Assembly (NCBI GenBank): GCA_001189075.1
Contig: LFCN01000006.1
Span: 169,384-233,383, forward strand
Direction: 5' to 3'
Origin: Parcubacteria bacterium C7867-004
GTDB lineage: Bacteria > Patescibacteriota > Minisyncoccia > Phycocordibacterales > Phycocordibacteraceae
Length of the DNA stretch: 64,000 nt
Within the stretch, counting starts at the first letter, position 1, and each line of letters starts with the position of its first letter. The notes beneath the pieces were generated by a model. That model was not told where the DNA came from, did no database searches, and worked only from the letters and a program-made list of their open reading frames with translations. The position numbers were made by a program, and so were the translations under genes. Below are positions 4,551-27,014 of this stretch, piece by piece.

Positions 4551-4576
4551 TACGTGATATACTCACGAATAGCTTT

Positions 4577-7009
4577 ATGTGGATGCATCCAGGAATCATC
4601 GCCGCTGCTGAAACCCTGACCGCTACCACCGGTGATCCGATTGCGTTCACGGTTCGAAGCAACGCGCTCATAGACACGACGATCAACGGAGAAGGCTTCA
4701 TGGTCGATGTGACGTTCAAAGGTCTTTCGACCGGACAGACAGCTGACGCAACTAAGATAAGCGGCACCATAACTCGTGCGGGATATACGAATACCGGCGC
4801 AGCCACCACCTACACACTCCCGTTTGTTGGAACACTCGCCGCACGACGCGCGGGTCCGAGCTACGCGTCATTCATCCAGACCACCTCGGGCTCCGATGTA
4901 GTAATCTCGTACATACTCGACCGCTCGATCTTCAGCACGGACACCGTCACGAGTGTCACGATTGCATCGGGAGCCTACACCGGCTCGCGTGCGAGTAATA
5001 GCGCGCTTCTGGTCATCACGAACAGCTCGACCTACGCTCCGCTACGTCCGCACTGCCAGTTCATTACGCCGCCGCATCTGCTTGTTACCGGCGGAACGAC
5101 CGCTCCCATAGAGATAGCCGCGTTCCACGCCTTCGCGCAGGGAGGAAGCGAGGTAGCGTGCGTGAAGGTTCGTGCTCGCGATGCGGTCTCCGGAGGGAAC
5201 GTGGGTGCGTGGACGACCGTGAACACCATGAGTGCGTCAACGATACTGACGTACAGCGGCCTCACTTCCTGTATCTACCGGGCTGATGTCGATGTCTCCG
5301 CGATCAACGCGGGAGACTGTTATATCGAATACGTCGCATATCCCTGGGAGAGTTCACGCGTCTTCGATTCCAACAACGCGCTCGGTGGGGGAGCGGACGG
5401 CACTGCGCTTGATTCCGCTACGACCGGTCTCAGTTCCACCGCAGCCTTGCGTCCGCTCGATCACAACCCTGCGGCCGTACTCCATTTCTATAACGACAAA
5501 ACAACCGCATATGCGGGTGCGTACGCGAACGTTGACCCTTCAGCTGGAAACGATACAACCGGAACGGTCTACGCAACCCAGGATGCAGCCGATTCGGGCA
5601 ATCTTCCGTTCCTAACCATCAATGCCGCGTATGGCGCCGTGAAGACCTATAACAATGCGACGAAGGCCGGTACACGCCATAACGATGCAGGAGGCGCGGT
5701 TATATCGCTTAAGAACGGGACCTACTATATGTTCGGGGGAACGACGAACGCTACGCAGAACGTCGGTTCGGTGTGGACGTACATCCGGAAGCATCCATCC
5801 GCTACCGCTTCGAGCGTGATTCTCAATTCCGTGCAAACGGGCGTACTGGTGCCGAATGCGCAGCGCGTGATCGGTCGACGGACCTGGCTCGAGGATGTGA
5901 GCATGACCGGTGCTACCGTAGGAATCAGCAACTCAAATACATATCTGTACGGCAACGACTTCGGACGGCTCACCGAAGGGGTATTCAATCGCGTTGGCAT
6001 CACGAGTGTATCGGGCGTGGCTGCGACGAGCCCGTCTTGGCACTACGCCTTCCATCTGCTTTGGCTGTATAACTGCGACCTTGGACAGAGCGTAACAACA
6101 TCGGGCGGCGGGGTTGCCAGTGGTGCGCAAGGAGTGGTGCTCGGCGGATCGAGGCTCAGTTTGAACTTTGCCTCAGGACTCCATTGGGCAATGGGTAACC
6201 TGGGGGCCGATGCGGGCATAGGGGACGCTCCGCGACTCGGCAACGCGAACTTCGTTACGCGATATGCAGCTGACATCGATGCTTGGATCGGCGCCTTCAA
6301 TTACATTAAGGTCACCAATGCGAGCGGGAGTGGCGCCGTATATGCCGCGAATCTGCTCTCGCCTGCAGCATCGAACGGTACGAGCGCGCCGACCAACGGC
6401 TATGTGTGGGTGGGGAACCAGCTTGAGATGTCCGACAATCTCTCTGCAACCGCTAAGTGCATGCAGCTTGCGGCGGACGGGTCTGCGGTCTCGTGTCCGA
6501 ACATGGTCATGCATGCGAATTCGCATGTAGGGGAGCGCACAAACGTTCTCTATAACGAGATCACTGGCGCTCCAGCGTACCCTAAGCGCATCGTGATGCG
6601 ATACAACCTGTACACGAACTTTAACTGTAAGCGCGATACTAATAACGCTGGCGGGTCGACCCATGAAGCGGCGCGCACGGGTGTCTATGCACACGGGTAT
6701 CATGTCGATGGCGCAGGGAACTTTGCGCAATCGACCGCCAATACCTTGGTGCCTGGTCCGCTGTCTTGGTACGGCGAGCGATGGGCCGGTGTGAATGGCG
6801 GCGTTAGCAGCTCGCTGACCTACGGCTTCGTGGACGATCGATCTCTTACCGGAACGAGTGGTAGCGGCGGCGGCGACTATCGCGTACAGAGCGGATCCTC
6901 CGCGCTCGGCCTCGTTCCGGCGGGACAGCAGCCGCTTTCGCACTATCTCTACGGCGCGGTACGGGACAATAGCGTTGCGGGTCCTGCGGGGTGTAGGGAA
7001 CCGGCGTAG
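4577..7009 (+). CDS. Large Thr/Ser/Gly/Ala-rich hypothetical protein, possibly with a beta-helix fold
   Basis: 811-823 aa ORF. The track start at 4538 is TTG; the first ATG is at 4577. Low-complexity T/S/G/A-rich composition with Asn/Gly-rich stretches. No signal peptide seen. Confidence 0.5.
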   Translation: MWMHPGIIAAAETLTATTGDPIAFTVRSNALIDTTINGEGFMVDVTFKGLSTGQTADATKISGTITRAGYTNTGAATTYTLPFVGTLAARRAGPSYASFIQTTSGSDVVISYILDRSIFSTDTVTSVTIASGAYTGSRASNSALLVITNSSTYAPLRPHCQFITPPHLLVTGGTTAPIEIAAFHAFAQGGSEVACVKVRARDAVSGGNVGAWTTVNTMSASTILTYSGLTSCIYRADVDVSAINAGDCYIEYVAYPWESSRVFDSNNALGGGADGTALDSATTGLSSTAALRPLDHNPAAVLHFYNDKTTAYAGAYANVDPSAGNDTTGTVYATQDAADSGNLPFLTINAAYGAVKTYNNATKAGTRHNDAGGAVISLKNGTYYMFGGTTNATQNVGSVWTYIRKHPSATASSVILNSVQTGVLVPNAQRVIGRRTWLEDVSMTGATVGISNSNTYLYGNDFGRLTEGVFNRVGITSVSGVAATSPSWHYAFHLLWLYNCDLGQSVTTSGGGVASGAQGVVLGGSRLSLNFASGLHWAMGNLGADAGIGDAPRLGNANFVTRYAADIDAWIGAFNYIKVTNASGSGAVYAANLLSPAASNGTSAPTNGYVWVGNQLEMSDNLSATAKCMQLAADGSAVSCPNMVMHANSHVGERTNVLYNEITGAPAYPKRIVMRYNLYTNFNCKRDTNNAGGSTHEAARTGVYAHGYHVDGAGNFAQSTANTLVPGPLSWYGERWAGVNGGVSSSLTYGFVDDRSLTGTSGSGGGDYRVQSGSSALGLVPAGQQPLSHYLYGAVRDNSVAGPAGCREPA

Positions 7010-7184: not shown

Positions 7185-7877
7185 TCAATGCGCCAACGCG
7201 AGTCCCCGAACGTCGGTGGCGCCTGCGTTCCGTAGGGCGCTGATCGCTTCATTCATGGTCGATCCTGTCGTAATCACATCATCAAGCACTAGGTACGTAC
7301 GAGCCGGATCCACCTCCGCTTTTGCCGTAAACGCGTCGGTTACATTCCGAGACCGTTCGCTTCCGCTACGTGATGTCTGGGGTGCAGTGTCCCTGCTCCG
7401 TACTAATAAACCGGTCTCATAAGCCGCAAACGATTCCAATCCGCGCAGCGCTTCCTCGATTATCCGTTCCACCTGGTTATATCCGCGTTCAGATACTCGT
7501 TTCCGGGAGAGTGGAATGGGTACGATCGATAGAGAGGACTGATCGGCAGGCCACTCTTTCAGATACTCAGCCAGCACAGTACCGAGAAGCTCCTGTGCCG
7601 TGCGATTATCCTTGAATTTAGCTTCGACGATCAATGCCCGTATTAGAGGATTCGAATAGGGAAGCAGGGCGGTACTGTCCGGAGATATGACCGCTTTTGA
7701 CATCAGCGCCCTGACGTCCTCGATGGTTGCTTCTGCAACAAGCGTTCCGTTTGGGGTCGGCGGGAACAGGAAGTCGAGTATCCACGAGAAGCTGAACATG
7801 AGGGGATGATACAATGCGCGTATGAGCTTCCTCACACGGATCTTCGGAAAAACGAAGAAGGGGGGCGCCAGCGTCAT
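7185..7877 (-). CDS. comFC: ComF-family competence protein (phosphoribosyltransferase-like)
   Basis: C-terminal PRTase motif YLVLDDVITTGSTMNEAISALRNAGA. Adjacent to the pilus locus. The start is uncertain because the ORF overlaps the pilM start. Confidence 0.65.
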   Translation of the reverse strand: MTLAPPFFVFPKIRVRKLIRALYHPLMFSFSWILDFLFPPTPNGTLVAEATIEDVRALMSKAVISPDSTALLPYSNPLIRALIVEAKFKDNRTAQELLGTVLAEYLKEWPADQSSLSIVPIPLSRKRVSERGYNQVERIIEEALRGLESFAAYETGLLVRSRDTAPQTSRSGSERSRNVTDAFTAKAEVDPARTYLVLDDVITTGSTMNEAISALRNAGATDVRGLALAH

Positions 7878-8934
7878 CGGAATCGATATCGGATCCTCCT
7901 CCCTGAAGGTCGTGCAGTTGCGGCGTGAGGGAGGAACGGCCGTGCTTGAGACCTATGGGGAGCTCGCGCTCGGGCCCTATGCAGGAGCTGAGGCCGGCCA
8001 AGCAACTAACCTTTCAGCCGCCGTTATAACCGAGACCCTGAACGATCTCCTCCGAGAGGCGAATGTAACGACGAAGGATGCAGGTATCTCCATACCGTTT
8101 TCGCGCTCGCTCCTGACGCTCATCGAGCTTCCGAAGCGAGAGAATCCGGAAGAGCAGAAGACCGTGATCGAGCTTGAAGCGAGGAAGTACATCCCGGTTC
8201 CGGTGTCGGAAGTGCAGCTCGACTGGTTCATTATCCCGGAATTCCCGGCAGAGGGCGCCGAGCCGAGCGGAGAGGCCGAGCTCGCGAGCGTGAAAGTGCA
8301 GGTACTGCTCGTAGCAGTGCATAACGATGAGCTCGCATTGCTCGAGAGCGTAGTGCAGGGGGCGCAGCTCGCCGCCTCGTTCTATGAGATCGAGATTTTC
8401 AGTACGATACGTGCGGTTGTGGACGAGCCGGTGAAGCCGGTTATGGTGCTCGATATCGGGGCATCGGCCACCAAAGTGTATGTAGTTGAGCACGGCGTGG
8501 TCGCGTTCTCGCACAACATCCCGCAGGGAGGACAGGATGTAACCCGCACTATAGCGACCGCTAACAGCCTTACGGTGAAGAAAGCGGAAGAGCTTAAGAA
8601 GGAGCACGGATTCGCCGACGGCAAGGAAGCGTACGATCGAAGCACCATCGAGCTCGTGTTCTCGCACATCTTCGAAGAGGCGCGTCGTGTCTCGACGCAG
8701 TACCAGATGCTCCACGGCAAGACCGTGTCGGCACTCGTGCTTACGGGTGGCGGCGGCGTGACCAAGGAGCTCGAGCAGTATGCAAAGACCTTCTTCTCGG
8801 TGAACGTAGAGATCGCCAATCCGTTCAGCAAGGTTCAGGCTCCCGCATTCATGCGACCGGTGCTCGAGGCGATCGGTCCTGAATTCGCGGTTGCGGTAGG
8901 GCTTGCGCTCAGGAAGCTCGAAGAAATAGCGTAA
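7822..8934 (+). CDS. pilM: Type IV pilus assembly ATPase-like protein PilM
   Basis: Actin-like fold motifs GIDIGSSSLKVV and VLDIGASATKVY. First gene of a pilM-pilN-pilO run. Confidence 0.8.
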   Translation: MSFLTRIFGKTKKGGASVIGIDIGSSSLKVVQLRREGGTAVLETYGELALGPYAGAEAGQATNLSAAVITETLNDLLREANVTTKDAGISIPFSRSLLTLIELPKRENPEEQKTVIELEARKYIPVPVSEVQLDWFIIPEFPAEGAEPSGEAELASVKVQVLLVAVHNDELALLESVVQGAQLAASFYEIEIFSTIRAVVDEPVKPVMVLDIGASATKVYVVEHGVVAFSHNIPQGGQDVTRTIATANSLTVKKAEELKKEHGFADGKEAYDRSTIELVFSHIFEEARRVSTQYQMLHGKTVSALVLTGGGGVTKELEQYAKTFFSVNVEIANPFSKVQAPAFMRPVLEAIGPEFAVAVGLALRKLEEIA

Positions 8935-8988: not shown

Positions 8989-9681
8989 GTGGCCATACCT
9001 CCGACCATACCGACATCATTCGTGCCAAAACAGGCGGCTTCCCCAAGCCGCAGGGTAAAGACGGGTACGGATATTCTGCTCATTATTGCGAGCGTAATAA
9101 CTGCGATCGTGGCGATCTCCGCGCTCGCGGCATTCGGGTACGAGACCTATCTCAAGAGTGAACGCGATAAGAAGGCCGATCTCGTGATCGCCGCGCAGCG
9201 CGAGATCAATATGGATACCATCGAGAGCTTCGTCAGGCTCCGAAATCGGCTTAAGTCGACGTCCATCATCCTTGATCAGCATGTCATCCTCTCTCAGTTC
9301 TTCACCGTCCTTGAGATGCGCTCCCTGCAGTCCGTCCATTTCAAGAAACTCAGCCTGAAAGTAAACGACGATCGGACTGCAGAGCTCGATGCGAGCGGCG
9401 TTGCACGCAGTTTCAACGCGCTTGCCGCCCAGAGCGCCTCGTTCGCGGATGAGAAGCGTATCAAGAGCGCGATATTCTCCGACATCGCTCCGAGCAAGGA
9501 CGGGGTAATCGGATTCAAGCTCTCCGCTGATCTCGATTCGGGCCTTATCGTCGCCAACTCCTCGTCCGTGTTCGGATCACCTGTGACTCCGGCTCCGGCT
9601 CCGGTGCCGGTAGTGCCCATTCCTGAACCGTCACCAGCAGCCCCCGCTGCTGCAGCCCCGGCAACGACTACAACGCCATGA
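8989..9681 (+). CDS. pilN: PilN-like bitopic membrane protein with a Pro/Ala-rich tail
   Basis: Short cytoplasmic N-terminus, a single TM (ILLIIASVITAIVAISALAAF), then a coiled region. Called mainly from position after pilM. Confidence 0.55.
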   Translation: MAIPPTIPTSFVPKQAASPSRRVKTGTDILLIIASVITAIVAISALAAFGYETYLKSERDKKADLVIAAQREINMDTIESFVRLRNRLKSTSIILDQHVILSQFFTVLEMRSLQSVHFKKLSLKVNDDRTAELDASGVARSFNALAAQSASFADEKRIKSAIFSDIAPSKDGVIGFKLSADLDSGLIVANSSSVFGSPVTPAPAPVPVVPIPEPSPAAPAAAAPATTTTP

Positions 9682-10250
9682 ACTCGCGCATAATTCCCAT
9701 CATTCTTGTAATCGGCTCTATTGCGCTCTTTGCGTTGTATGTCCATCCGACCTATACGCAGTCCATCGCAACATTGTCTGGAGAGATAAAGGGATATGAT
9801 GCGGTCCTCGCGAGCGCGAAGCGCTTCAAAGAGAAGCAGTCGGATCTCTCCGCGCAGAAGAGCGCGATACCGCTCGACCAGCTGGCGCGCCTCGAGGCAT
9901 TCCTCCCGGATACGGTTGATAACGTGCAGCTCATCCTTGACCTTAATGCGCTTGCCGCGCGCTCGGGCGTAAGTCTTTCGGATCTCGACGTAGCGCTCCC
10001 TGAAAAGAAAGACGAGCAAATCGACGGTTCAGGCCGCATCTCGCTTACCGGACAGAATCCGATCGAGACACTCGAGGTATCGCTTAGTATCACCGGAAGC
10101 TACGGCGCGTTCCGCACGTTCCTTGCCGCTGCTGAGAACAGTCTCCGTCCGCTCGATATCGTCGAGATCGTTGTAACGGACGAAGGAGCCGAGGCAGCAG
10201 CGGGCACGCACAACTATGACGTCACGTTCCGCATCTACTGGCTTCGGTAA
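9678..10250 (+). CDS. pilO: PilO-like bitopic membrane protein
   Basis: N-terminal TM (IIPIILVIGSIALFALYV) with coiled-coil and soluble domain. Overlaps pilN by 4 nt, suggesting translational coupling. Confidence 0.5.
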   Translation: MNSRIIPIILVIGSIALFALYVHPTYTQSIATLSGEIKGYDAVLASAKRFKEKQSDLSAQKSAIPLDQLARLEAFLPDTVDNVQLILDLNALAARSGVSLSDLDVALPEKKDEQIDGSGRISLTGQNPIETLEVSLSITGSYGAFRTFLAAAENSLRPLDIVEIVVTDEGAEAAAGTHNYDVTFRIYWLR

Positions 10251-10584: not shown

Positions 10585-12339
10585 ATGGACCTCGTCGCGC
10601 TCCTTAGTGAAAAGGGCCTGCTATCGAAAGAGGATGCCGCTTCAATTACGGTTGATGCCGCGGTCGCGGGAGCGCAGATCGAGAGCCTGCTCGAGAAGAA
10701 GGGTGTCGATCTGGTAAAAGCATTCGCGCTCGTGAGCGAGAAGTACGGGATACCGTATCGCGCTCTTGCTACCAGCGAGATAGGAGACGAGCATACGCTC
10801 GGGTATATCCCTGAGGAATCCGCACGGCATTACGGGTTCGTGCCGATCGAAGTCGATAACGGCGCTCTGTCGGTCGGTATCATCGACCCGGACAACATCG
10901 AGGCTCTCGATGCGCTGCAATTCATCTCTTCGCGCGTCGGGATGCCGTACAAGCTTTTCATAATCAGCCAGACCGATTTCGATAAGGTTATCCAGGCGTA
11001 CGGCAATCTTACGGGCGAGGTGGGGGAGGCGCTCTCAGAGTTCGAGGGCTCAGATCCGAATGCAAAAGGAGCGGCAAAGCCCGGAGCGGAGGAGTCGGAA
11101 GAGACGGTTAGTCAGGAGATTAAGGCCGATGCGCCGGTTACGAAGATAGTCGCCACGATACTCCGGTATGCGGTGGAAGGTGGTGCCTCCGACATCCATA
11201 TCGAACCGACTCCGGAGAAGACCAAGGTCAGGTTCCGCATGGACGGCGAACTCCATACATCCCTCGAGCTTCCGGCGAAAGTTCACGCCGCGGTGGTAGC
11301 GCGTATCAAGATCCTTTCCCAGATGCGCCTCGATGAGAAGCGCAAGCCGCAGGACGGGCGCTTCTCTGCGACGGTGGAAGGAAGAAGGATCGACTTCCGC
11401 GTATCGACCTTCCCGACGCAGGGTGGCGAGAAGGTCGTGATGCGTATTCTCGATAGCGCGAAGTCGGTCGCGACTCTCGATACCATCGGCCTCTCGAAGG
11501 AAGACCTGATCACCGTGCGCGAGCTCATCAAAGAGCCCTACGGCATCATCCTTATCGCGGGACCGACCGGATCGGGTAAGTCGACGACGCTCTTCTCTAT
11601 GCTTTCGGAGCTCGATCGCGAGACGGCGAACGTCGTGTCGGTCGAGGATCCGGTCGAGTATGAGATACCCGGCGTCTCGCAGTCGCAGGTCAGGCCTGAG
11701 ATCGGGTATACGTTCGCTTCGGGACTGCGCTCTATTCTCCGTCAGGACCCGGACATCATCATGGTGGGAGAGATCCGTGATAAGGAGACCGCACAGCTGG
11801 CTATCCAAGCGGCGCTTACCGGTCACCTCGTGTTCTCGACCATTCACACCAATACCGCCGCCGGCGTCATCCCGCGTCTCGTCGATATGGGTGTTGATCC
11901 CTACCTCATCGCGCCGACGCTTAAGGCGGCGATCGGCCAGCGTCTCGTGCGTAAGCTCTGTCCGGGAGCAGGGAAGCCGTTCCCGATTTCGGAAAGCATA
12001 CGGAAGTTTCTCGAAGAGGATTTTGCCGATCTTCCGGAAGATGCTCGACATAAGGTACCTGAATTCAAAGAGTTCTATACCGCGAGTCCAACCGCCGACT
12101 GCCCGAACGGTACGCGCGGACGACTCGCAGTGTTCGAGCTCATGCGCATGGACGACGATCTGGAGCACGTAGTCCTCACCGACCCGGTTGAGGAAAAGGT
12201 GTATGCAGCAGCGCGCACTAAAGGCATGTTCACGATGCGCGAGGATGCTATCATGAAGGCACTAGCTGGTCTCATACCGTTTGAAGAGGTAAACACGCTC
12301 GGAGGCCAGATGTTTACCGATGAAGAGAACGCAGGGTAA
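10585..12339 (+). CDS. pilB: Type IV pilus assembly ATPase PilB (GspE family)
   Basis: N-terminal GSPII-like domain, Walker A LIAGPTGSGKSTTL, Asp/His boxes, and a tetracysteine-like region reduced to CPGAG…CPNG. Confidence 0.9.
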   Translation: MDLVALLSEKGLLSKEDAASITVDAAVAGAQIESLLEKKGVDLVKAFALVSEKYGIPYRALATSEIGDEHTLGYIPEESARHYGFVPIEVDNGALSVGIIDPDNIEALDALQFISSRVGMPYKLFIISQTDFDKVIQAYGNLTGEVGEALSEFEGSDPNAKGAAKPGAEESEETVSQEIKADAPVTKIVATILRYAVEGGASDIHIEPTPEKTKVRFRMDGELHTSLELPAKVHAAVVARIKILSQMRLDEKRKPQDGRFSATVEGRRIDFRVSTFPTQGGEKVVMRILDSAKSVATLDTIGLSKEDLITVRELIKEPYGIILIAGPTGSGKSTTLFSMLSELDRETANVVSVEDPVEYEIPGVSQSQVRPEIGYTFASGLRSILRQDPDIIMVGEIRDKETAQLAIQAALTGHLVFSTIHTNTAAGVIPRLVDMGVDPYLIAPTLKAAIGQRLVRKLCPGAGKPFPISESIRKFLEEDFADLPEDARHKVPEFKEFYTASPTADCPNGTRGRLAVFELMRMDDDLEHVVLTDPVEEKVYAAARTKGMFTMREDAIMKALAGLIPFEEVNTLGGQMFTDEENAG

Positions 12340-12354
12340 TCAGCCATACTTTTT

Positions 12355-12741
12355 ATGAACAAGATATATCGCCTCTATCTGGTCGACGACGACCGCTTCC
12401 TCCTCGACATGTACGCGGTTAAGTTCAAGGCTGCCGGCCATGAGGTAACCGCATTCTCGGGTGGCGAAGAGGTGCTCAAGGCACTCCGCGAGAGCCCAGC
12501 TCCCGATGCGCTCTTACTCGATATCGTCATGCCGGGCATCGATGGGTTCGGCGTGCTCGAAGCAATACACGCAGAGAAACTTGCGCCTTCCGCGAAGCTC
12601 ATCGTGCTCTCGAACCAGGGCCAGGAGAGTGATATCACCCGGGCTAAGGAGCTCGGTGCGGTCGGCTATATCATCAAGGCGTCCGCCATACCTTCGGAGG
12701 TATTCTCGGAGACCATAGCCATTATCGAGAAACCCGCATGA
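12355..12741 (+). CDS. Single-domain CheY-like response regulator (PilH/PilG-like)
   Basis: Receiver residues LVDDD…LLDIVMPGIDG…LSN. No output domain. Confidence 0.7.
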   Translation: MNKIYRLYLVDDDRFLLDMYAVKFKAAGHEVTAFSGGEEVLKALRESPAPDALLLDIVMPGIDGFGVLEAIHAEKLAPSAKLIVLSNQGQESDITRAKELGAVGYIIKASAIPSEVFSETIAIIEKPA

Positions 12742-13805
12742 GTGCATCCGCAACAAGCAGACTCGACGCTTTACTCGACGCGGTCGTAGCGGAGGGAGCG
12801 TCCGACATCCATCTTTCTGCGGGCGCCAGCCCGATGCTTCGCATCGCCGGCTCCTTGGTGCCGCTGCTGCAGCAAGCACCACTCACCTCGGAAGAGACCA
12901 TGGCGATCCTGAAAAGTATCGCACCCGAGTCCCGCTGGCAGTCGTTTATCGACAATCAGTCAATAGACTTCTCGCTCGCGCATACGCCGAAGGTTAGGTT
13001 CCGCGTGAACGGCTATACCGTGCAAGGCAGCGTCGCTATCGCGATGCGTCTCATTCCGAACGAGATCCAGAGCTTCGAGAAGCTAAATCTGCCACCGATA
13101 CTCGAGGTATTCAGCCAGCGCTCGCACGGCTTTTTCCTCGTGGTGGGTCCGGTGGGTCAGGGAAAGTCGACCACGCTCGCGGCGATCCTCGACCGTATCA
13201 ATCAGACGCGCTCCGAGCATATCCTTACCATTGAGGATCCTATCGAGTACCTCTTCGAAGCGAAGCAGTCGCTCATCCATCAGCGCGAGGTGCACATCGA
13301 TGCGCCGGACTTCCAGTCAGCGCTCCAGTCCGCGTTCCGCGAGGACGTGAACGTGATCATGGTGGGTGAGATGCGTAACCAAGAGACGATCTCCAGCGCC
13401 GTTACCGCCGCAGAGACGGGCCACCTCGTGCTTTCAACGCTTCACACCAACAACGCTGCGCAGACTATCGACCGTATCATCGACATGTTCCCGTCGAACC
13501 AGCAGGATCAGGTACGCGTGCAGCTCGCCGGTTCGCTCTCCGGCATCTTTTCGCAGCGCCTCGTACCGCGCATTTCAGGTGGACAGCTTCCGGCATACGA
13601 ACTGCTCATCAACAACAGCGCTATAGCGAACCTCATCCGTGAAGGCCGGACCCACGAGATAGCGACGGTTATCCAGACAAGTTCCCAGGAGGGCATGATC
13701 GACATGGACCGTTCGCTCGCGGAACTGGTCCGTCGCGGGGAGGTGACCATCGAGCACGCGTACGAGCGCGCGAACGATCCAAAGACCTTCGAACGGTACC
13801 TCTAA
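12738..13805 (+). CDS. pilT: Twitching motility (pilus retraction) ATPase PilT
   Basis: Walker A GPVGQGKSTTLAAIL. PilT-length ORF with the typical AIRNLIREG-like segment (IANLIREGRTHEI). Confidence 0.9.
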   Translation: MSASATSRLDALLDAVVAEGASDIHLSAGASPMLRIAGSLVPLLQQAPLTSEETMAILKSIAPESRWQSFIDNQSIDFSLAHTPKVRFRVNGYTVQGSVAIAMRLIPNEIQSFEKLNLPPILEVFSQRSHGFFLVVGPVGQGKSTTLAAILDRINQTRSEHILTIEDPIEYLFEAKQSLIHQREVHIDAPDFQSALQSAFREDVNVIMVGEMRNQETISSAVTAAETGHLVLSTLHTNNAAQTIDRIIDMFPSNQQDQVRVQLAGSLSGIFSQRLVPRISGGQLPAYELLINNSAIANLIREGRTHEIATVIQTSSQEGMIDMDRSLAELVRRGEVTIEHAYERANDPKTFERYL

Positions 13806-13808
13806 CCT

Positions 13809-15017
13809 ATGCTTTTCAATTACCACGCACTGGATACGGACGGGCACGAGCGTAACGGCACGGTCGAGGCGCTCTCCGTCGATATCGCCGTCTCGACGCT
13901 CCAGCGTCGGAATCTCATCGTCTCCTCTATAGAACCGGTAGCGAACAAGTCGATGTTCGCGCTCGATCTTACGTTCCTTAAGCGGGTCTCGAACAAGGAG
14001 GTAGTCATCCTTTCGCGCCAGATTGCGACGCTCTTCGAGGCGCAGGTTTCAGCGCTCCGCATATTCCGTCTGCTAGCGGCCGAGTCGGACAACAAGCATC
14101 TCGCCGAGATCATGACCCAAGTCGCCGACGATCTGCAGGGCGGAAGCCCGATCAGCCGCGCGCTCGGCAGGCACCCGAAGGTGTTCACTAGCTTCTATGT
14201 GAACATGGTGCGCTCTGGAGAGGAGTCCGGAAAGCTCTCTGAGACGTTCGGCTACCTTGCCGATTATCTCGATCGCACCTACGAGGTGGTAACCAAGGCG
14301 CAAAACGCGCTCATCTACCCGGCGTTCGTCATCGGGGTGTTCGTCATCGTGATGGGGCTCATGCTCACGCTCGTGATCCCGCGTATCAGCGCCATCCTCA
14401 AGGATTCGGGTCAGCCGATACCGCCGTATACGCAGGTGGTCATCCTCCTGTCCGATCTCCTCGTCCAGTACGGGTTGTTCATACTCATCGGTATGGCTAT
14501 CGCCGCGTTCGCTGCCTTCCGTTCGCTTAAGACGCCGTCCGGAAAGCTCTTCTTTGATGCCATAAAGCTCCAGTTCCCGTATGTCGGTGATCTCTATCAG
14601 AAGCTGTATCTCTCTCGCATCGCTGACAACTTCGCGACCATGCTCGTCTCGGGCGTTCCGGTCGTTGAAGCCATGGAGATAACGGCGTCGGTGGTGGGCA
14701 GTACCACGTACGAGAACATCCTTAAGGATGTGGGCGAGCAGGTCCGGGGAGGATCCTCGATATCTGATGCGCTCGCACGCCATGTGGAGATACCGGGCAT
14801 TATGACCGCCATGGTGCGTGTGGGTGAGGAGACAGGAGAGCTGGGGAACATTCTCAATACGCTCGCTAAGTTCTATCAGCGAGAAGTGTCGACGGCGGTT
14901 GATACGCTCGTGGACCTCATCGAACCACTTATGATCGTGCTTCTCGGACTCGGGGTGGGTACGCTGCTCGCGTCCGTGATGATCCCTATCTACAACCTCG
15001 CCGGTTCAATCGGATAA
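13809..15017 (+). CDS. pilC: Type IV pilus inner-membrane platform protein PilC (GspF family)
   Basis: Duplicated T2SSF-like domains with three TM segments. Confidence 0.85.
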   Translation: MLFNYHALDTDGHERNGTVEALSVDIAVSTLQRRNLIVSSIEPVANKSMFALDLTFLKRVSNKEVVILSRQIATLFEAQVSALRIFRLLAAESDNKHLAEIMTQVADDLQGGSPISRALGRHPKVFTSFYVNMVRSGEESGKLSETFGYLADYLDRTYEVVTKAQNALIYPAFVIGVFVIVMGLMLTLVIPRISAILKDSGQPIPPYTQVVILLSDLLVQYGLFILIGMAIAAFAAFRSLKTPSGKLFFDAIKLQFPYVGDLYQKLYLSRIADNFATMLVSGVPVVEAMEITASVVGSTTYENILKDVGEQVRGGSSISDALARHVEIPGIMTAMVRVGEETGELGNILNTLAKFYQREVSTAVDTLVDLIEPLMIVLLGLGVGTLLASVMIPIYNLAGSIG

Positions 15018-15145: not shown

Positions 15146-15538
15146 ATGAATCTCGGACACCTCAGCATGCGACGCGGCTTCACGCTCATCGAGCTCCTCG
15201 TCGTTATCGCTATCATCGGCATCCTCTCGTCGGTTGTGCTCGCACAGGCTGAAATCCTGTACGATACTGCTGGAAACTATGACAGCGTCTGTATTGACAC
15301 TGCCGGCGTTGTGAAGCAGCTTACTGCAGCATACGCCGCAGCAGGCGTAACATACGCGCTTACGTGCTATGACTCTGCAACTGCATGGGCAGCTGCAGCC
15401 CCTCTTAAGGGAGGAGGCGCATTCTGCGTCGATAGCACCGGAGTAGCACGATCGGTCACGGCAGCTAACGCTAACTACGTCGGAGTCACCGGTGTAGCTC
15501 CTGCAGCACTCGTATCTGCAGCAACGGCTTGTAACTAA
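15146..15538 (+). CDS. pilA: Type IV major pilin, copy 1
   Basis: Class III signal MNLGHLSMRRG|FTLIELLVVIAIIGILSSVVLA with Glu+5. C-terminal Cys pair (C…C) consistent with a disulfide loop. Confidence 0.8.
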   Translation: MNLGHLSMRRGFTLIELLVVIAIIGILSSVVLAQAEILYDTAGNYDSVCIDTAGVVKQLTAAYAAAGVTYALTCYDSATAWAAAAPLKGGGAFCVDSTGVARSVTAANANYVGVTGVAPAALVSAATACN

Positions 15539-15679: not shown

Positions 15680-16121
15680 ATGAATCTCGGACACCTCAGC
15701 ATGCGACGCGGCTTCACGCTCATCGAGCTCCTCGTCGTTATCGCTATCATCGGCATCCTCTCGTCGGTTGTGCTCGCCGGTTAGATCGAATATGGCGAGC
15801 GTTAGGCAGCAGGCGGAGTTAGTCTTCGACTCGAACAATTACAGCTACTTGGCGCCGACGAGCGTTTGCGCCGACACTACCATTGTTCGTCAGCTAACAG
15901 CTGCATACGCAGCGGCAGGCGTAACCTACACGCTTACGTGCGGAGCATCTGCGAGCGCGTGGGCAGCTGCAGCCCCTCTTAAGGGAGGAGGTGCATTCTG
16001 CGTCGATAGCACCGGAGCCGCAAAGACTACACAGGGTGTAGGTTCAACTGCGTACACCGCTGTTTCTGGTGCTGCTACTGCAGCGCTCACCACTGCCACA
16101 ACGGACTACGACTGCAACTAG
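15680..16121 (+). pseudogene. Type IV pilin paralog, copy 2, interrupted by a roughly 29-nt insertion carrying two in-frame TAG codons
   Basis: The N-terminal 34 codons are identical to copy 1 (MNLGHLSMRRGFTLIELLVVIAIIGILSSVVLA) and then hit TAG at 15782. The homologous downstream part (QQAELVFDSNNYSY…AAAPLKGGGAFCVDSTG…DYDCN) continues in another frame (15768..16121) with an internal ATG at 15792. Confidence 0.5.
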
Positions 16122-16256: not shown

Positions 16257-16766
16257 ATGAATCTCCGGCATAAGGGTTTTACGCTCATCGAGCTCCTCGT
16301 CGTTATCGCTATCATCGGCATCCTCTCGTCGGTTGTGCTCGCTTCGCTTAACACCGCGCGAACGAAAGCGACCGATTCCTCGATAAAGTCGAACCTGAAC
16401 GGATTGCGCTCGCAGGCTGATATCTTCTACGACACGCGCAACTATTCTTACGCAGGAGGTACGGGAGTGGTCTCAACGGCAGCGACGTGCCTTGCTTCTG
16501 CATTCACAAACACGGCTACGAACTATACCCTCATGGGCGATAGCGTGTTCTTTGCCGGTATGAGTGCGGCACGAACTGCGAGCGGCGGGTTGTGCTACTA
16601 CCTCAACAATGCGAATAACTGGGCTCTTATCATTCAGCTGAAGGGTGATCTGACCAAGGCATGGTGCATAGACAGTTCAGGTAATGCGAAGCAGACGGCG
16701 GACGGAGCCGCGTATACCGGAACGACTATCGCGGGAGATATTTCAGGCGCAGTGTGCGGAACATAA
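16257..16766 (+). CDS. Type IV pilin, copy 3
   Basis: MNLRHKG|FTLIELLVVIAIIGILSSVVLASLNTARTKA classic prepilin N-terminus. The variable C-terminal domain contains Cys residues. Confidence 0.8.
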   Translation: MNLRHKGFTLIELLVVIAIIGILSSVVLASLNTARTKATDSSIKSNLNGLRSQADIFYDTRNYSYAGGTGVVSTAATCLASAFTNTATNYTLMGDSVFFAGMSAARTASGGLCYYLNNANNWALIIQLKGDLTKAWCIDSSGNAKQTADGAAYTGTTIAGDISGAVCGT

Positions 16767-16834
16767 ATGAGATTGATTAGTGCTGCGGCAACTGGCTCTC
16801 CAAGGGGAGCCAGTTGCGCGTTATACTGGTACGA

Positions 16835-17596
16835 ATGGATCCGCTCATGTATCTCATCGCCGGCGCGTTTGCAGTGCTCGGGGCAGTACTCGCGAGCTTC
16901 GTGGGGGTGGTGAGTGAGCGGGCGTACACCGGAACCTCCTGGGCGATCGGACGATCGAAGTGTGACTCGTGCGGAACGTTTCTAGAAGGGCTCGATCTTG
17001 TCCCGGTACTGTCGTGGCTCCTATCACTCGGGCGCTGTCGCCATTGCGCCGCTCGCGTGACGGCGGTGCATGCACTTTCGGAAGCTGTTCTCGGCGCATT
17101 GTTCGCACTCTCATACCTAACGCTTGGTCTTACGCTTCCTCTCCTCGCATTTCTCGCGGCACTCCTCGTCCTTACCTTCATCGTGCTCTATGATCTGCGA
17201 CATACTATCGTTCCGCCGCTCGCGTCAGGCCTGCTTATTCTGTTGTCGGTATTCTTTGCGGCCCTTACGAGCGAGAGCGTGGAGCGTTTCGGCCTCACGC
17301 TCCTCATTGCGGGCGTAATCGGTCTGGGCTTCTTTCTGCTGTTCGCGGGTTCCGGTGGCCGAGCTATGGGTCTGGGGGACAGTCCCGTTGCGCTCGCTCT
17401 CTCACTCCTCGTTGGAGGCGTCCTTGCGGTGTCCGGACTCCTGTTCTCGTTCTGGATCGGCGCGCTTGTAGGCGTTCTTATATTGGTTAGGCACCCGAAA
17501 GGGCATAGAATGGGTATCGAGGTGCCCTTCGTTCCGTTTCTCGCAGCGGGATATCTGCTCGCCTTCTTCACTCAATGGAACTTCCTCTCTTTCTAA
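16835..17596 (+). CDS. pilD: Prepilin peptidase PilD (A24 family) with N-terminal Zn-binding CxxC…CxxC
   Basis: CDSCGTFL…GRCRHCAARV tetracysteine motif and a multi-TM body with the active-site Asp context (DLRHTIVP…GLGDSPVA). The track ORF begins at 16814; ATG 16835 is preferred. Confidence 0.85.
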   Translation: MDPLMYLIAGAFAVLGAVLASFVGVVSERAYTGTSWAIGRSKCDSCGTFLEGLDLVPVLSWLLSLGRCRHCAARVTAVHALSEAVLGALFALSYLTLGLTLPLLAFLAALLVLTFIVLYDLRHTIVPPLASGLLILLSVFFAALTSESVERFGLTLLIAGVIGLGFFLLFAGSGGRAMGLGDSPVALALSLLVGGVLAVSGLLFSFWIGALVGVLILVRHPKGHRMGIEVPFVPFLAAGYLLAFFTQWNFLSF

Positions 17597-18258
17597 GATC
17601 TCTCAAAAGGCCGCAACGAGGCTTCACGCTCGTGGAGATGATCGTTGTTCTAATTATCATCACCACCATAACCAGCATCGTGCTCCTGGGTCAGAACACC
17701 TTCAATCGCTCTCTGGTGCTCACCGATACAGCCTACACGCTCGCATTCTCCATTCGTGAAGCGCAGTCGCGCGGGCTTTCGAGCAAGCTGTTCGGTTCAA
17801 TACAGAATGTGGGTTATGGCATACATCTGACTTCAGCAACACCGAAGTCCTACATCGTGTTCGCCGACATATCCCCATCCTCGCCGAGCACGCTCGGCGG
17901 GCTCTGTCCGAACCACACCGTTTCGTCAGGACCGGAAGCTAAGCGCGGGAACTGCGTCTATACGGATTCGGGAGAGGTTTTAAAAACCTACACCCTTGAA
18001 AAGGGTTTCAATATAAGTAATTTCTGCGGGCTCGAGCCGAGCAACGTCAATCGATGCTCCGGGTACCTGAGCGCACTTGATGTATCCTTCACGCGCCCTA
18101 ACACGCAAGCGACCATAATCGGTATCACGTCAGGATCGTCGTATATCGAGCTGACCACCGCGGCAATTACCCTTACGTCTCCGGACGGCACGAGCCATCG
18201 CTGCATTGCGGTATCGAAGGTCGGCGTGGTGTCGGTAGCGACCGGAGCCTGCCCATGA
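17575..18258 (+). CDS. Minor (pseudo)pilin
   Basis: Prepilin motif KRPQRG|FTLVEMIVVLIIITTI. Overlaps the pilD end by 22 nt. Confidence 0.65.
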   Translation: MELPLFLRSLKRPQRGFTLVEMIVVLIIITTITSIVLLGQNTFNRSLVLTDTAYTLAFSIREAQSRGLSSKLFGSIQNVGYGIHLTSATPKSYIVFADISPSSPSTLGGLCPNHTVSSGPEAKRGNCVYTDSGEVLKTYTLEKGFNISNFCGLEPSNVNRCSGYLSALDVSFTRPNTQATIIGITSGSSYIELTTAAITLTSPDGTSHRCIAVSKVGVVSVATGACP

Positions 18259-18788
18259 GTATGAACCGCAACCATCAAGGCTATACGCTTCTTGAACTCA
18301 TCGTCTCGGTAGGTATCTTCAGCATGGTGATGCTTATCGTTACGGGCGCGTACCTTGCCCTCATTAGCCTCGACCGGAAGGCGCGGGCCGTGAACGATCT
18401 CTCCTCAAACTTCTCTTTCGCTCTCGATGGCATGACCCGTTCGATACGCACCGGCAAGAACTTTGCGTGCGTGGGCGGGGGAGACGGCACGTGCTCGCAG
18501 ATGTCGTTTCGGGATCCGGACAATAATACGGTGACGTATCTGCTGAAGACGAGCGGCAGTATCGGCCAGTGCACGTCCGGAGTGTGCTCTGATACGTCGG
18601 CGGTAGCGCTTACCGATCCGAGGATACGCATCGATGCGCTCACGTTCTATATACGCGGCTCATCTATTTCGGATGAAGTGCAGCCGCAGGTGATCATCAC
18701 CATCCGCGGGAATATCCTCACCGAAGTGGGTAAGCAGACCAATTTCGCGGTCCAGGCTGCGGCGACCCAGCGCCTTATCGACATATGA
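18255..18788 (+). CDS. Minor (pseudo)pilin
   Basis: NHQG|YTLLELIVSVGIFSMVMLIV prepilin N-terminus. Confidence 0.65.
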   Translation: MSMNRNHQGYTLLELIVSVGIFSMVMLIVTGAYLALISLDRKARAVNDLSSNFSFALDGMTRSIRTGKNFACVGGGDGTCSQMSFRDPDNNTVTYLLKTSGSIGQCTSGVCSDTSAVALTDPRIRIDALTFYIRGSSISDEVQPQVIITIRGNILTEVGKQTNFAVQAAATQRLIDI

Positions 18789-19354
18789 TCATGAATACCC
18801 CGAAAGGCTTTACGCTCGTGGAGACGCTCGTCGCGTTGTCCCTCATCACAATAGCGATGATCGGCCCGTTCCAGTCGGTTGAAAATGCGCTCGCAGCATC
18901 CTATGTCGCGCGTGATCAGATCATCGCAACGAACCTCGCGCAGGAGGGTATTGAGTACGTACGAAGCGTCCGTGATGCCAACTATCTCTATAAGCTCAAT
19001 CACACCACCACGACCCGTACCTGGCTCTATGGGCTTGATGGAACTGATGCTAGTGGAGGAGCGGGTGGCGGAGTGAACTGCATAAGTTCTGACGGCTGCG
19101 TCGTCGATCCGACTCAGAACACGATCGCTGCATGCCCTGCCGGCGTCTGTCCGCCGCTCAGGCTCTCGACCGTGACCTATGTCTATAACCAGTCATCGGT
19201 GACTCCGACCAATCCGGTCACCATATTCACGCGCAAGGTCGTGCTAACCTCGACTGCCGCACACGAGAAGAAGATAACAGTGACCGTGAACTGGATAACT
19301 CGAGGAAAGCCCTATAGCGTAACGGTATCGGAAAGCATCTATAATTGGCTATGA
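18785..19354 (+). CDS. Minor (pseudo)pilin
   Basis: NTPKG|FTLVETLVALSLITIAMIG prepilin N-terminus. Confidence 0.65.
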   Translation: MIMNTPKGFTLVETLVALSLITIAMIGPFQSVENALAASYVARDQIIATNLAQEGIEYVRSVRDANYLYKLNHTTTTRTWLYGLDGTDASGGAGGGVNCISSDGCVVDPTQNTIAACPAGVCPPLRLSTVTYVYNQSSVTPTNPVTIFTRKVVLTSTAAHEKKITVTVNWITRGKPYSVTVSESIYNWL

Positions 19355-20685
19355 TGAATGTCAAACGGAATCCTCGCGGCTTCGCGCTCCTGGTAGCGAT
19401 CATACTGACCTCGGTACTCCTCTCGGTAGGTCTCGCGCTTCTTGATATCGCTTACAAGCAGATCTTGCTCGCGACGACCGCGAAGCAATCGGAGCTCGCG
19501 TTCTATTCGTCCGATACGATCCTCGAGTGCGCACTCTACTGGGACCAACAGTTCAATGCATTCAGCTATGCAGCGCCTGCTGCTAGCATCACCTGCGGAG
19601 GGCAGGTGATCGTGCTTCTGTCGCCACCGAATACGAGCGTCGTCGATGGTAACGTGCGCACCACGACGCTCACGATTCCAACCGCGTCAGGCTCAAGCGG
19701 TACCGTTACTATTTTGAAAGGAAGCGGAGGGGGAACCACGGTCTATGCGACCGGCTATAACAGCGGGAATGCAAGCGACCCGAACCGAACCGAGCGCGGC
19801 CTGAAGGCGGTCTATGGCGATCTTATTGCCACACCGGTGGCTATTCCGCCTCCGCCCTCGACGAGTCGTATATTCACAATAAGTCCAGCGGTGGGAGGGA
19901 GGACGACATGGGATCTCGATGTCCATGGTCCGCTTACCCTAAGCACGGCAGGAACGTGGACCATAGTTCCAAGTTCCACGTTCAGCGCGAGTGTACGGGC
20001 GTGGGGCGCAGGTGGCGGTGGCGGTAGCCCAGGCAGGTTTGATGATACGGGTGAATACCCGTATGGCGGCGGCGGTGGATTCACCTCAGGGACAGTGAGT
20101 ATGCCTTCCGGAGGTTCAATTTCTGTTCTGGTAGGTGGAGGAGGAAGTGGCACTGGTGTTGGGGGAAGCGGCGGAGGCGGAAACGCGAACGCGTTTACGC
20201 AGCATGGCGGAGGTGGCGGTCGTTCTGCGATAACGGTAGCTGCGGTGACCCAGATCGTAGCAGGAGGAGGCGGCGGCGGCGGGTATGATTACAGCGGCGG
20301 AGCGGGAGGTGGTCTCGCAGGACAGAGGTATTCTGCGCCGGGTAGCGGTTTCGGCGGTACCCAGACTGCAGGAGGCGCAGGACCAGGAAACCCAGGAAGC
20401 CTAGGGACGGGCGGTAACGGCATAAATTACACTGGTGGAGGAGGCGGCGGGTATTACGGAGGCGGCAGCGGTAGCTCTCCTTCATATTCGGCGGGTGGTG
20501 GTGGTGGTTCCGGCTACTACGGTGGCACTCTCGTGACCGGAGGCGCAACGACGGCCGGTAGTGGTCAGACTCCGGCAGGAACGACGGATCCCCGATACGG
20601 CAGTTCAGCTGGGCGAGGAGGTGATCCCGGTGGTGGTTTTGGAGACGGAGGAAGCGGAAATCCCGGTCGTATCGTCATCTACTAA
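19345..20685 (+). CDS. PilX-like minor pilin fused to a roughly 250-aa poly-glycine domain
   Basis: RNPRG|FALLVAIILTSVLLSVGLALL N-terminus. The C-terminal half is dominated by GGGGG(S/Y/T) runs (…GGGGGGGYDYSGGAGGG…). Confidence 0.6.
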   Translation: MAMMNVKRNPRGFALLVAIILTSVLLSVGLALLDIAYKQILLATTAKQSELAFYSSDTILECALYWDQQFNAFSYAAPAASITCGGQVIVLLSPPNTSVVDGNVRTTTLTIPTASGSSGTVTILKGSGGGTTVYATGYNSGNASDPNRTERGLKAVYGDLIATPVAIPPPPSTSRIFTISPAVGGRTTWDLDVHGPLTLSTAGTWTIVPSSTFSASVRAWGAGGGGGSPGRFDDTGEYPYGGGGGFTSGTVSMPSGGSISVLVGGGGSGTGVGGSGGGGNANAFTQHGGGGGRSAITVAAVTQIVAGGGGGGGYDYSGGAGGGLAGQRYSAPGSGFGGTQTAGGAGPGNPGSLGTGGNGINYTGGGGGGYYGGGSGSSPSYSAGGGGGSGYYGGTLVTGGATTAGSGQTPAGTTDPRYGSSAGRGGDPGGGFGDGGSGNPGRIVIY

Positions 20686-25908: not shown

Positions 25909-25982
25909 CTCCATGAGTTTTGTGTGGAGAGAAGGCTATCCACGAGACCGAGAATGCTACTATTCGTGTACGTATTTCTTTG

Positions 25983-27014
25983 ATGGGAAAAAGTATCTTT
26001 CTTAAGGGATCAAAGCAGCGACCCCGCGTTTCTTCGGAGTACCTGATCATTCCCAATAAATATTCTTTCCAGCTCATACAGAGCGTCAAGACACCGATCG
26101 CGACACCGGTCGCGCAGGAGGCGCATATCGCCGCTGCGGCTCCAGAACCTCTGGCGGCCGAAGCAGTTGCTCCGGTACTGGCTCAAGCGCCGCAGCAAGA
26201 GATTCCGAAAGTAACAGCCAAGCGCATCGAGCAAGAGCCGAAGACTGGCGTCGATGAAAGCAAGAGGCTCTTTCTCCGGCTTGCTGGGGTGGCGGGGCTC
26301 GGCGTGGTCGCGGCGACGGTGCTCCCCAAGAGCGCGCAGGCATATGTCATGGGAAGCTCGCCTACCTCAGGGGTCGTGGGGGTAAAGAACGCGGCCAATA
26401 CGCGTATCGATCCCGCTACAGAAGGTGGCAATCTCGCCTCAATAAAGACGAATACTGATCCGTTCAATGCCTCCGGAGCCGGCGGGTACGTGCGTCAGGA
26501 CTCCACCGGGACCATAGCGAAGGAAACCGGAGGGAATCTCGCGACCATCGCGGGGAAGGATTTCGCTACGCAGGCGACGCTCGCGGAGATCAAGGCGCAG
26601 ACCGACAAGTTCACCTTCAGTGGAAGCAACCTGCTCACATCGGGAGGCGGCGGAGGGGGAGGTGCGGTAACGGTCAACGACACGACCGATACGCAGATAA
26701 ACCCCGCGACCGACGACAGCGCGATGCTGCTGAGAAGGCTTGTGCGCCAAGTCGATTCGCTCGCTGTAGTCGACTCCGCGCAGCGCCAGAAGGTAACGAT
26801 CGATTCGATCACCGGTTCGCTCACGTTGAGCACCATTACGACGGTCGGTACGGTTACGGCTGTTACGACCGTATCGACGGTCACCACCGTCAGCACACTC
26901 ACGTCTGCAACCAACCTCGTTGCGCTCGGCGGCGTCGACGGTCGTTATCTACATATAGATACAGCGAGGAACATGTATGCTAACGGTATTCGCACGAATC
27001 TTCTGTTCTCCTAA
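25983..27014 (+). CDS. Membrane-anchored hypothetical protein with Tat-like signal-anchor and NLAxIKxxTDxF repeats
   Basis: KRLFLRLAGVAGLGVVAATVLPKSAQA hydrophobic segment about 95 aa from ATG 25983. Three repeats (NLASIKTNTDPF, NLATIAGKDF, TLAEIKAQTDKF), a poly-Gly stretch and a T/V-rich tail. The start is uncertain; the track gives 25920. Confidence 0.45.
   Translation: MGKSIFLKGSKQRPRVSSEYLIIPNKYSFQLIQSVKTPIATPVAQEAHIAAAAPEPLAAEAVAPVLAQAPQQEIPKVTAKRIEQEPKTGVDESKRLFLRLAGVAGLGVVAATVLPKSAQAYVMGSSPTSGVVGVKNAANTRIDPATEGGNLASIKTNTDPFNASGAGGYVRQDSTGTIAKETGGNLATIAGKDFATQATLAEIKAQTDKFTFSGSNLLTSGGGGGGGAVTVNDTTDTQINPATDDSAMLLRRLVRQVDSLAVVDSAQRQKVTIDSITGSLTLSTITTVGTVTAVTTVSTVTTVSTLTSATNLVALGGVDGRYLHIDTARNMYANGIRTNLLFS

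Follow-up and report, generated by a model that had tools for sequence, protein, structure and literature searches.

Gene 19345 of Parcubacteria bacterium C7867-004 (positions 19345..20685, plus strand, of a 64,000-nucleotide (nt) stretch of contig LFCN01000006.1, analyzed over its full length and hereafter called the window) encodes a protein in which a pilin module at the N-terminus is connected by a short linker to a large C-terminal glycine-rich domain (GRD). We consider it highly probable that this gene is a real modular minor pilin carrying a folded GRD of the ALK/LTK type. As an explanation of the whole, we propose, at a probability of roughly 0.6, that the protein is the modular tip pilin of a Patescibacteria-type type IV pilus (T4P), with the GRD as the tip adhesin. 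The principle is not new, given that modular pilins are established and combinations of a pilin with PF12810, the Pfam family of the ALK/LTK glycine-rich domain, have already been catalogued. What is new here is the carrier, a Glu5-less pilin in the PilX position that signature-based catalogues miss; the structural link from a pilin GRD to phage tail-tip domains; and the swapping of modules at one conserved operon slot across Patescibacteria.

Gene integrity and the pilin module

Gene 19345 is an uninterrupted open reading frame (ORF) of 446 amino acids (aa) when read from its TTG codon. The true start is probably the ATG at 19354, which yields a product of 443 aa identical to P0001, a protein from independent gene calls on two other contigs, where its neighbors are the same; SRR5324954 likewise contains the identical gene. 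This ATG is part of a compact ATGATG/TGA arrangement in which it overlaps the stop codon of the upstream minor pilin gene, the two genes sharing 4 nt (ATGA). The 'LAMM/LAMI' N-terminus seen in nearly all orthologues (window 19345-19356; most of L002-L075) corresponds to this conserved overlap with the upstream stop (…NWL*), which suggests that the last two minor pilins are translationally coupled.

The other two plus-strand frames contain 20 and 14 stop codons, leaving a single open frame. The Gly-rich region is neither a compositional nor a DNA-repeat accident: Tandem Repeats Finder detected only trivial arrays of 15-19 nt, which rules out a tandem-repeat origin of the glycine runs; the glycine codons are mixed (GGT 32, GGA 30, GGC 29 and GGG 7); and the base composition is that of the neighboring genes except for the G-skew expected from GGN codons, which speaks against foreign DNA. 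An NCBIfam scan of the protein returned no family match, and no second GRD or PilX-like gene was found elsewhere in the window.

An earlier note on this stretch, made from the sequence alone, allowed that the gene might be a frameshift artefact merging two genes. We give hardly any weight to the possibility that a short PilX-like gene was wrongly joined to a separate Gly-rich gene during assembly. It would account for the fact that most orthologues are about 155 aa long and end exactly at the pilin/GRD junction, and GRD-only proteins of about 300 aa do exist; however, there is no in-frame stop, neither alternative frame stays open through the junction and the GRD, and the identical ORF is present on two other contigs. 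Moreover, the pilin-linker-GRD layout recurs in eleven homologues that have diverged to 42-57% identity and come from various samples and databases (NCBI, JGI, ENA and Logan), locus L001, in a metagenome-assembled genome, has the fusion in the same operon slot, and the short-form genomes have no separate GRD ORF between the pilin gene and ligA. The pilin-GRD fusion is real, and a frameshift artefact is excluded.

The prepilin N-terminus recognized in the earlier note is present as described, MAMMNVKRNPRG|FALLVAIILTSVLLSVGLALLD (…RNPRG|FALLV…). The class III (prepilin) leader peptide (19345..19380) ends at Gly12 (…KRNPRG|F), as read from the sequence and from the presence of a PilD gene in the operon; after the short basic leader with its terminal Gly comes a hydrophobic stretch of about 20 residues (MNVKRNPRG|FALLVAIILTSVLLSVGLALL). 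Among 12 homologues, G12 is invariant and R11 and F13 are at least 90% conserved.

The N-terminal module of gene 19345 is a pilin. It comprises aa 13-157 (145 residues; 19381..19815), with a long hydrophobic alpha1 helix, AFYxxDxxLECALYWDQ as a conserved motif and a small beta-sheet that ends in ERGLKAVY. Residues 10-157 show good conservation in the alignment of 12 family sequences, G12 and YKQ…A.QS..AFY..D…ECALY.DQ being invariant. In the AlphaFold2 (AF2) model, a helix extends over residues 10-70 of the protein, and the predicted fold is the pilin fold, a long N-terminal helix on an antiparallel beta-sheet, with Thermus pilins named among the comparisons. The boundary of the module is placed at aa 157 from the AF2 model and from the orthologues that end there.

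The pilin module has Val in place of Glu at position +5, and this residue is Ile or Val in all 17 homologues that carry the module. PF07963/TIGR02532 (N-terminal methylation, Glu +5) do not match the protein of gene 19345 at E<=0.1; the isolated pilin module does not match T2SSK (PF03934), PilX_N (PF14341) or ComGG even at E<=10, and Pfam as a whole returned nothing relevant at this threshold. A missing N-methylation Glu5 is a known exception among GspK/PilX-type capping pilins. Gene 19345 is, as previously noted, the last gene of the minor-pilin set, the fourth of the genes starting at 17575, 18255, 18785 and 19345 in an H-J-I-K type order, and this position together with the missing Glu5 is the basis of the label 'PilX/GspK-like'. 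The earlier designation 'PilX-like' thus holds for operon position, the absence of Glu5 and the generic pilin fold, and fails at the level of sequence families, with no PilX, GspK or ComGG model matching.

The pilin module is followed by a Pro-rich linker, GDLIATPVAIPPPPSTSR (aa 158-175; 19816..19869), in which the predicted local distance difference test (pLDDT) score falls below 50 at aa 161-168. Among the homologues, the linker varies in length and sequence and contains poly-Pro or poly-Gly.

The glycine-rich domain and its structural relatives

The GRD (aa 176-446, 271 residues; 19870..20682) is predicted to consist of a beta-sandwich and a lattice of Gly-run segments. The region of aa 170-446 contains 98 Gly residues (35%) and makes up 62% of the protein, in agreement with the earlier estimate of more than half; between aa 217 and 446, the Gly content reaches 41%. 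The region contains 11 runs of G3 to G7, spaced by S/T/A/Y/V-containing segments, with no homopolymer longer than seven residues. The term 'poly-glycine' used in the earlier note therefore refers to a real Gly-rich region and overstates its uniformity.

The GRD belongs to PF12810 by both sequence and fold. The Pfam match scores 28.5 bits against a gathering score of 24.5 and covers aa 217-396 (nt 19993-20532), corresponding to positions 12-203 of the 243 in the model; the homologues P0095 (33.5 bits) and P0020 (24.5 bits) match the family as well. In the AF2 model, computed with a 93-sequence alignment, the mean pLDDT is 88.6; 10-residue blocks within aa 170-446 mostly score 93-98, with a minimum of 78, and only the leader and aa 161-168 of the linker are predicted to be disordered. 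The best 21 Foldseek matches in the PDB are all structures of the ALK/LTK TG/GRD ectodomain (prob 1.0, E down to 5.7e-07), and the model, in being superposable on the solved structures, agrees with the fold of this family, a beta-sandwich with a polyglycine-II lattice. The family profile reaches ALK in the PDB at E 0.0065, in register with the ALK motifs WxV..YGAAGG..LVG..GGGGGG..AAGGGG..GGGGGGY. A single-sequence phmmer search against the PDB yielded only a spurious uroplakin match (E 0.48), and the top profile match, 9YNU_F (a 'transcription initiation factor' chain), was disregarded as a low-complexity GGGGGYYGGGG match.

That the Gly-rich half could instead be a poly-Gly tail, flexible and intrinsically disordered, that sticks or aggregates, as the earlier note suspected, appears very improbable. 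The Gly content of 35-41% with its many GGGGG runs would be compatible with such a tail, disorder predictors typically call such sequences coil (PMC13243192), and DSSP finds neither helix nor strand over most of aa 221-440 of the model. Against this stand the PF12810 score above the gathering score, the pLDDT values and the uniform set of ALK/LTK structures at the top of the Foldseek results. DSSP does not assign polyglycine-II helices, which explains why most of aa 221-440 is labelled coil although the confidence of the model is very high there. Thus, structure prediction, which the earlier note had recommended, shows a confident fold in the Gly-rich part, and on the strength of this model we conclude that the domain is folded, not disordered.

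Conservation within the GRD is uneven. Among the homologues, Gly positions are conserved at a mean of 0.74 vs 0.51 for non-Gly positions. Insertions and deletions (indels) are concentrated in a small number of the loops between Gly runs; the block of aa 340-349 contains 25 inserted alignment columns. Conservation is lowest in the blocks of aa 230-239, 280-289 and 420-439.

The family and the fold are shared with the GRD of ALK and LTK (PDB 7NX3, 7LRZ, 7LS0, 7NX1 and 7LIR), in the crystal structures of which the Gly runs are packed as polyglycine-II helices into a honeycomb that rests on a beta-sandwich; in ALK, this lattice has been described as a rigid scaffold. The superposition extends to only about 176 of about 270 residues, however, and the loops differ. 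The metazoan domain resides in the ectodomain of a receptor tyrosine kinase and binds ALKAL cytokines, whereas the GRD of gene 19345 is the C-terminal module of a prokaryotic pilin. PF12810 includes many bacterial surface proteins, and ALKAL binding, which would not be expected in bacteria, is not a defining feature of the family.

The nearest non-metazoan structural relatives of the GRD are phage host-recognition devices, namely receptor-binding or 'brush' domains of phage tails: the fibre of cyanophage Pam3 (7YPX) and gp33 and gp29 of Bxb1 (9D93; such a function being putative for gp33), with gp38 of phage S16 as a functional counterpart. The GRD also matches PHROG phage families at 7e-11. 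Polyglycine-rich domains of phage tail tips are described as stable platforms for variable receptor-binding loops, or are presumed to be anti-receptors. The pilin GRD resembles them in combining the conserved Gly scaffold with indels and low conservation in the loops between the runs.

Orthologous loci and the exchange of C-terminal modules

Orthologues were surveyed with one genome per species, in 80 loci labelled almost without exception as Patescibacteria, Paceibacterota or Parcubacteria. By this distribution of homologues, the window most likely stems from a Paceibacteria-type member of the Patescibacteria. The gene order PilT-PilC-PilD-mpH-mpJ-mpI-orthologue of gene 19345-LigA (mpH, mpJ and mpI being the three other minor pilins) is complete in 55 of the 80 loci and partial in nearly all the rest, the synteny being conserved in 55-77 of the 80 genomes. 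About 70 of the 80 orthologues, some 155 aa long, end at …ERGLKxxY, equivalent to aa 157 of gene 19345, with ligA directly next. A PF12810-type GRD is found in L001 only, and none of 79 loci has a separate GRD ORF beside the short-form orthologue.

Other loci carry other modules at the same place. The orthologues in L008 and L009 have a Gly_rich_2/PF21722 module, which is also present in P0012; the L004 orthologue has an F5/8 type C domain after a poly-Gly linker; and that of L070 has four InlB B-repeat domains. In the two related genomes L012 and L033, the genes in the PilX position (from locus coordinate 6001) encode the same pilin carrier ending in 120-200 residues of low-complexity Tyr/Ser/Gln-rich repeats (SYYSQG / GYYQGYY) and no GRD, a very different kind of putative sticky tip; the L012 sequence includes a masked N run.

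A HMMER search of 1.84 billion cluster representatives yielded 3662 matches at E<=1e-3, of which the best 150 were inspected. About 6-7 of these clusters match both modules; most are pilin-only proteins of 150-170 aa, and the remainder are GRD-only, either about 300 aa long or giant proteins with several GRD copies. Outside pilins, the GRD occurs in stand-alone proteins of about 300 aa and in giant multi-copy proteins, and also together with type IX secretion system (T9SS), fibronectin type III (FN3) or Big domains.

The GRD is attached to other pilins, too. In L082 (1515-3326; P0020), it is carried by a homologue of minor pilin 2 from the same operon, with 35% identity to window 18255-18785 (BLASTP E 2e-31); a region of about 150 aa intervenes between pilin and GRD, and the gene in the PilX position of this locus encodes a short product of 163 aa. 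A GRD is also present on P0095, a pilin that does contain Glu5. Among further family members, P0005 apparently has two tandem GRDs. In some members, an F5/8 type C (discoidin-like) domain is added to the GRD or takes its place. In P0002 (612 aa), the GRD is followed by a C-terminal domain of about 170 aa ending …CTFEELQVFP, which resembles the L004 module.

Given the short orthologues, the alternative modules and the GRD on the minor pilin 2 homologue of L082, these sequence comparisons show that the C-terminal module is optional and swappable and that the GRD is a mobile effector module found on different subunits of the predicted tip complex. The search for similar Gly-rich pilin fusions in other genomes, which the earlier note had suggested, was successful, with the same architecture in all eleven diverged homologues. 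The note had also held that homologues lacking the domain entirely would speak against its proposal; this is not the case in a sub-clade of at least ten clusters that conserves the GRD, and it is the case for the roughly 70 short orthologues.

In joining a pilin through a short linker to a module that folds on its own and is not confined to T4P biology, gene 19345 has the architecture of a modular type IV pilin, shared with PilB (with a vWA module) and PilC (with a lectin module) of Streptococcus sanguinis, CofB of enterotoxigenic Escherichia coli and TcpB of Vibrio cholerae, whose C-terminal effectors are proposed to be tip-exposed and adhesive; S. sanguinis PilB was shown to be an adhesin (PMC8179133). 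Gene 19345 differs from the catalogued modular pilins in being missed by the IPR012902/PF07963 signature, in lacking Glu5 and in occupying the GspK/PilX slot of a four-gene set. The modular-pilin catalogue comprises 264 architectures, among which Datasets S1 and S2 list 'IPR012902 - PF12810' (2 proteins) and 'IPR012902 - PF12810 x3' (1 protein), along with one PilY1 architecture containing PF12810, the PF12810 architectures being listed without discussion (Raynaud et al. 2021). Hence the fusion, described in the earlier note as unlike any standard PilX/PilY1 architecture, is not unprecedented. Among known modular pilins, none with a PF12810 module has been characterized, and literature searches on polyglycine II together with pilins and on PF12810 yielded no paper that discusses or characterizes such a pilin.

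Within Patescibacteria, the closest counterparts by architecture are PilX1 and PilX2 of Nanosynbacter lyticus TM7x (Saccharibacteria), minor pilins that likewise possess a large C-terminal accessory domain and exceed all other pilins of their loci in size; without PilX2, the host is not bound efficiently (PMC11623550). The accessory domains of these proteins, a beta-jelly-roll and a seven-bladed beta-propeller, differ from the GRD, and both proteins are reported to lack a recognizable PilD signal, whereas gene 19345 has a clear G|F site. By position, the counterparts are the capping minor pilins GspK, PilX of Pseudomonas aeruginosa and PilK.

The pilus cluster and the proposed tip function

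Gene 19345 closes a complete T4P cluster encoded on one strand and is followed by ligA, gatC and gatA. The cluster begins with PilM (7822-8934; PilM_2, 4.8e-39) and two genes assigned to PilN and PilO by position only (8989-9681 and 9678-10250), followed by PilB (10585-12339) and PilT (12738-13805), which are among the T2SSE matches at 6.3e-118 and 2.7e-47, and PilC (13809-15017; T2SSF, 1.3e-58), all on the plus strand. Two candidate major pilin genes (15146-15538 and 16257-16766, plus strand) match N_methyl at 7.5e-09 and 1.2e-09. The prepilin peptidase PilD (16814..17596, plus strand) matches A24_N_bact at 2.3e-20 and, below the cut-off, Peptidase_A24 at 8.8e-05. Next, on the same strand, are minor pilin 1 (17575..18258; N_methyl 6.5e-08), GspH/FimU-like by a sub-threshold match to TIGR01708 GspH; minor pilin 2 (18255..18788; N_methyl 2.3e-07) in the PilW/GspJ/ComGF position; and minor pilin 3 (18785..19354; N_methyl 5.9e-06), PilV/GspI-like by matches to TIGR02523 PilV and TIGR01707 GspI below the cut-offs. 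Gene 19345 is therefore encoded together with a prepilin peptidase and an assembly machinery (PilD, PilB, PilT, PilC and PilM) in a strand-consistent cluster.

Between the two candidate major pilin genes, frame analysis revealed an apparently frameshifted major-pilin-like copy (approximately 15680-16121, plus strand), in which the frame of the prepilin N-terminus MNLGHLSMRRGFTLIELLVVIAIIGILSSVVLAG meets a stop codon at about 15782 and the rest (…VRQQAELVFDSNNYSY…, to 16121) lies in another frame. This copy is a close paralogue of the intact gene 15146-15538; it may represent a pseudogene or a phase-variable pilin, or its frameshift may stem from a sequencing error. Just upstream of the cluster, an ORF of 823 aa (4538-7009, plus strand) has no Pfam match at E<=0.01. 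Farther downstream, an ORF of 364 aa (25920-27014, plus strand) also lacks a Pfam match and contains a G7 run and Thr/Val repeats of the TVSTVTTVSTLTS type; in L081, it is followed by a gene of at least 945 aa without annotation. The 364-aa ORF and this large gene may encode further surface proteins.

In both the type II secretion system (T2SS) and T4P, assembly is primed by minor pilins of the GspH/I/J/K type, which remain at the tip of the filament, the subunit that lacks Glu5 being uppermost. Judging from sequence features and gene order, PilD, encoded four genes upstream, would cleave the leader of gene 19345 after Gly12, and the Glu5-less pilin module (aa 13-157) would join the three minor pilins in the GspH, GspJ and GspI positions. 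The resulting complex would prime assembly and end up at the distal tip of the filament, capped by this pilin module. Because the module sits in the capping (GspK/PilX) position, the GRD on its Pro-rich linker would, by analogy, be displayed at the very tip of the pilus. There, the predicted beta-sandwich under its rigid polyglycine-II lattice would present the variable loops between the conserved Gly runs, and these loops may attach to a structure on the surface of a host or partner cell, or to some other substrate; PilT retraction would then pull the cell onto the bound target. This proposal derives from the phage tail-fibre and 'brush' domains and from Saccharibacteria PilX2 as analogues, on which grounds we lean toward the GRD acting as a pilus-tip adhesin. 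The adhesive or aggregating flexible tip envisaged in the earlier note is accordingly retained in one respect, an adhesive tip being the function best supported by these analogies, and abandoned in another, given that the GRD is folded according to PF12810 and AF2.

Several points weigh against this interpretation. For any bacterial PF12810 domain, the ligand and an adhesive role are assigned by analogy, and the AF2 confidence in part reflects the alignment. Most orthologues (about 70 of 80) have no C-terminal module at all, which implies that the pilus works without one, and the module could serve a non-adhesive accessory role. In such a role, the GRD would be part of the pilus as a rigid cap or spacer for priming, length or retraction, as a shield against phages or predators, or in DNA uptake or ice binding. 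The description of the ALK lattice as a rigid scaffold fits the first of these roles, DNA uptake has also been proposed for patescibacterial T4P, the T4P-1 of TM7x drives twitching motility (PMC11623550), snow-flea antifreeze proteins likewise use polyglycine-II helices, and the module is evidently dispensable in most relatives. We nevertheless regard these roles as unlikely on balance: the other modules on the same carrier are typical binding modules (the discoidin-type F5/8 type C domain, of a carbohydrate-binding type, and InlB B-repeats), the nearest non-metazoan structural relatives recognize phage hosts, and variable loops on a conserved scaffold are more readily reconciled with diversifying ligand recognition than with a role in structure alone. 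Neither a basic patch nor a known DNA-binding motif is present, electrostatics not having been computed. Antifreeze and DNA-binding roles of the GRD were considered, and no supporting evidence was found.

It is very unlikely that the filament is a secretion-type pseudopilus with the GRD-bearing subunit at the tip of the piston. The sub-threshold matches of the minor pilins to GspH and GspI of T2SS and the GspK-like lack of Glu5 point in this direction, but PilM and the retraction ATPase PilT, together with PilB and PilC, constitute a set of the type IVa pilus (T4aP) type. No secretin or GspL/GspM set was detected, apart from a weak T2SSM_b match below the cut-off, and Patescibacteria are known to assemble real T4P (PMC11623550).

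If the tip-adhesin interpretation of gene 19345 is extended, ultrasmall episymbionts and phages might share a single receptor-binding 'cartridge', a polyglycine-II lattice with hypervariable loops that is plugged onto whichever tip minor pilin is available (PilX-like or PilW/GspJ-like) and exchanged with lectin-like modules. The loops of the GRD would then set which host is grabbed, much as gp38-type adhesins set the host range of phages, and the metazoan ALK/LTK GRD would have begun as a prokaryotic or viral recognition device. We offer this scenario as a speculation that is more doubtful than the adhesin role itself.

T4P are the main candidate organelles with which Patescibacteria (the candidate phyla radiation, CPR) find and hold their hosts, and the adhesins involved are largely unknown. 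The locus described here provides a concrete candidate adhesin, with an effector module from a structurally solved family whose closest non-animal relatives are found in phage host-recognition devices. It also shows that Gly-rich 'low-complexity' regions of bacterial surface proteins ought not to be written off as disordered by default. The PilX-position pilin of Paceibacteria-type genomes appears as a carrier for swapped binding modules, so that metagenomic sequences could allow predictions of the hosts or substrates for which a pilus is specific.

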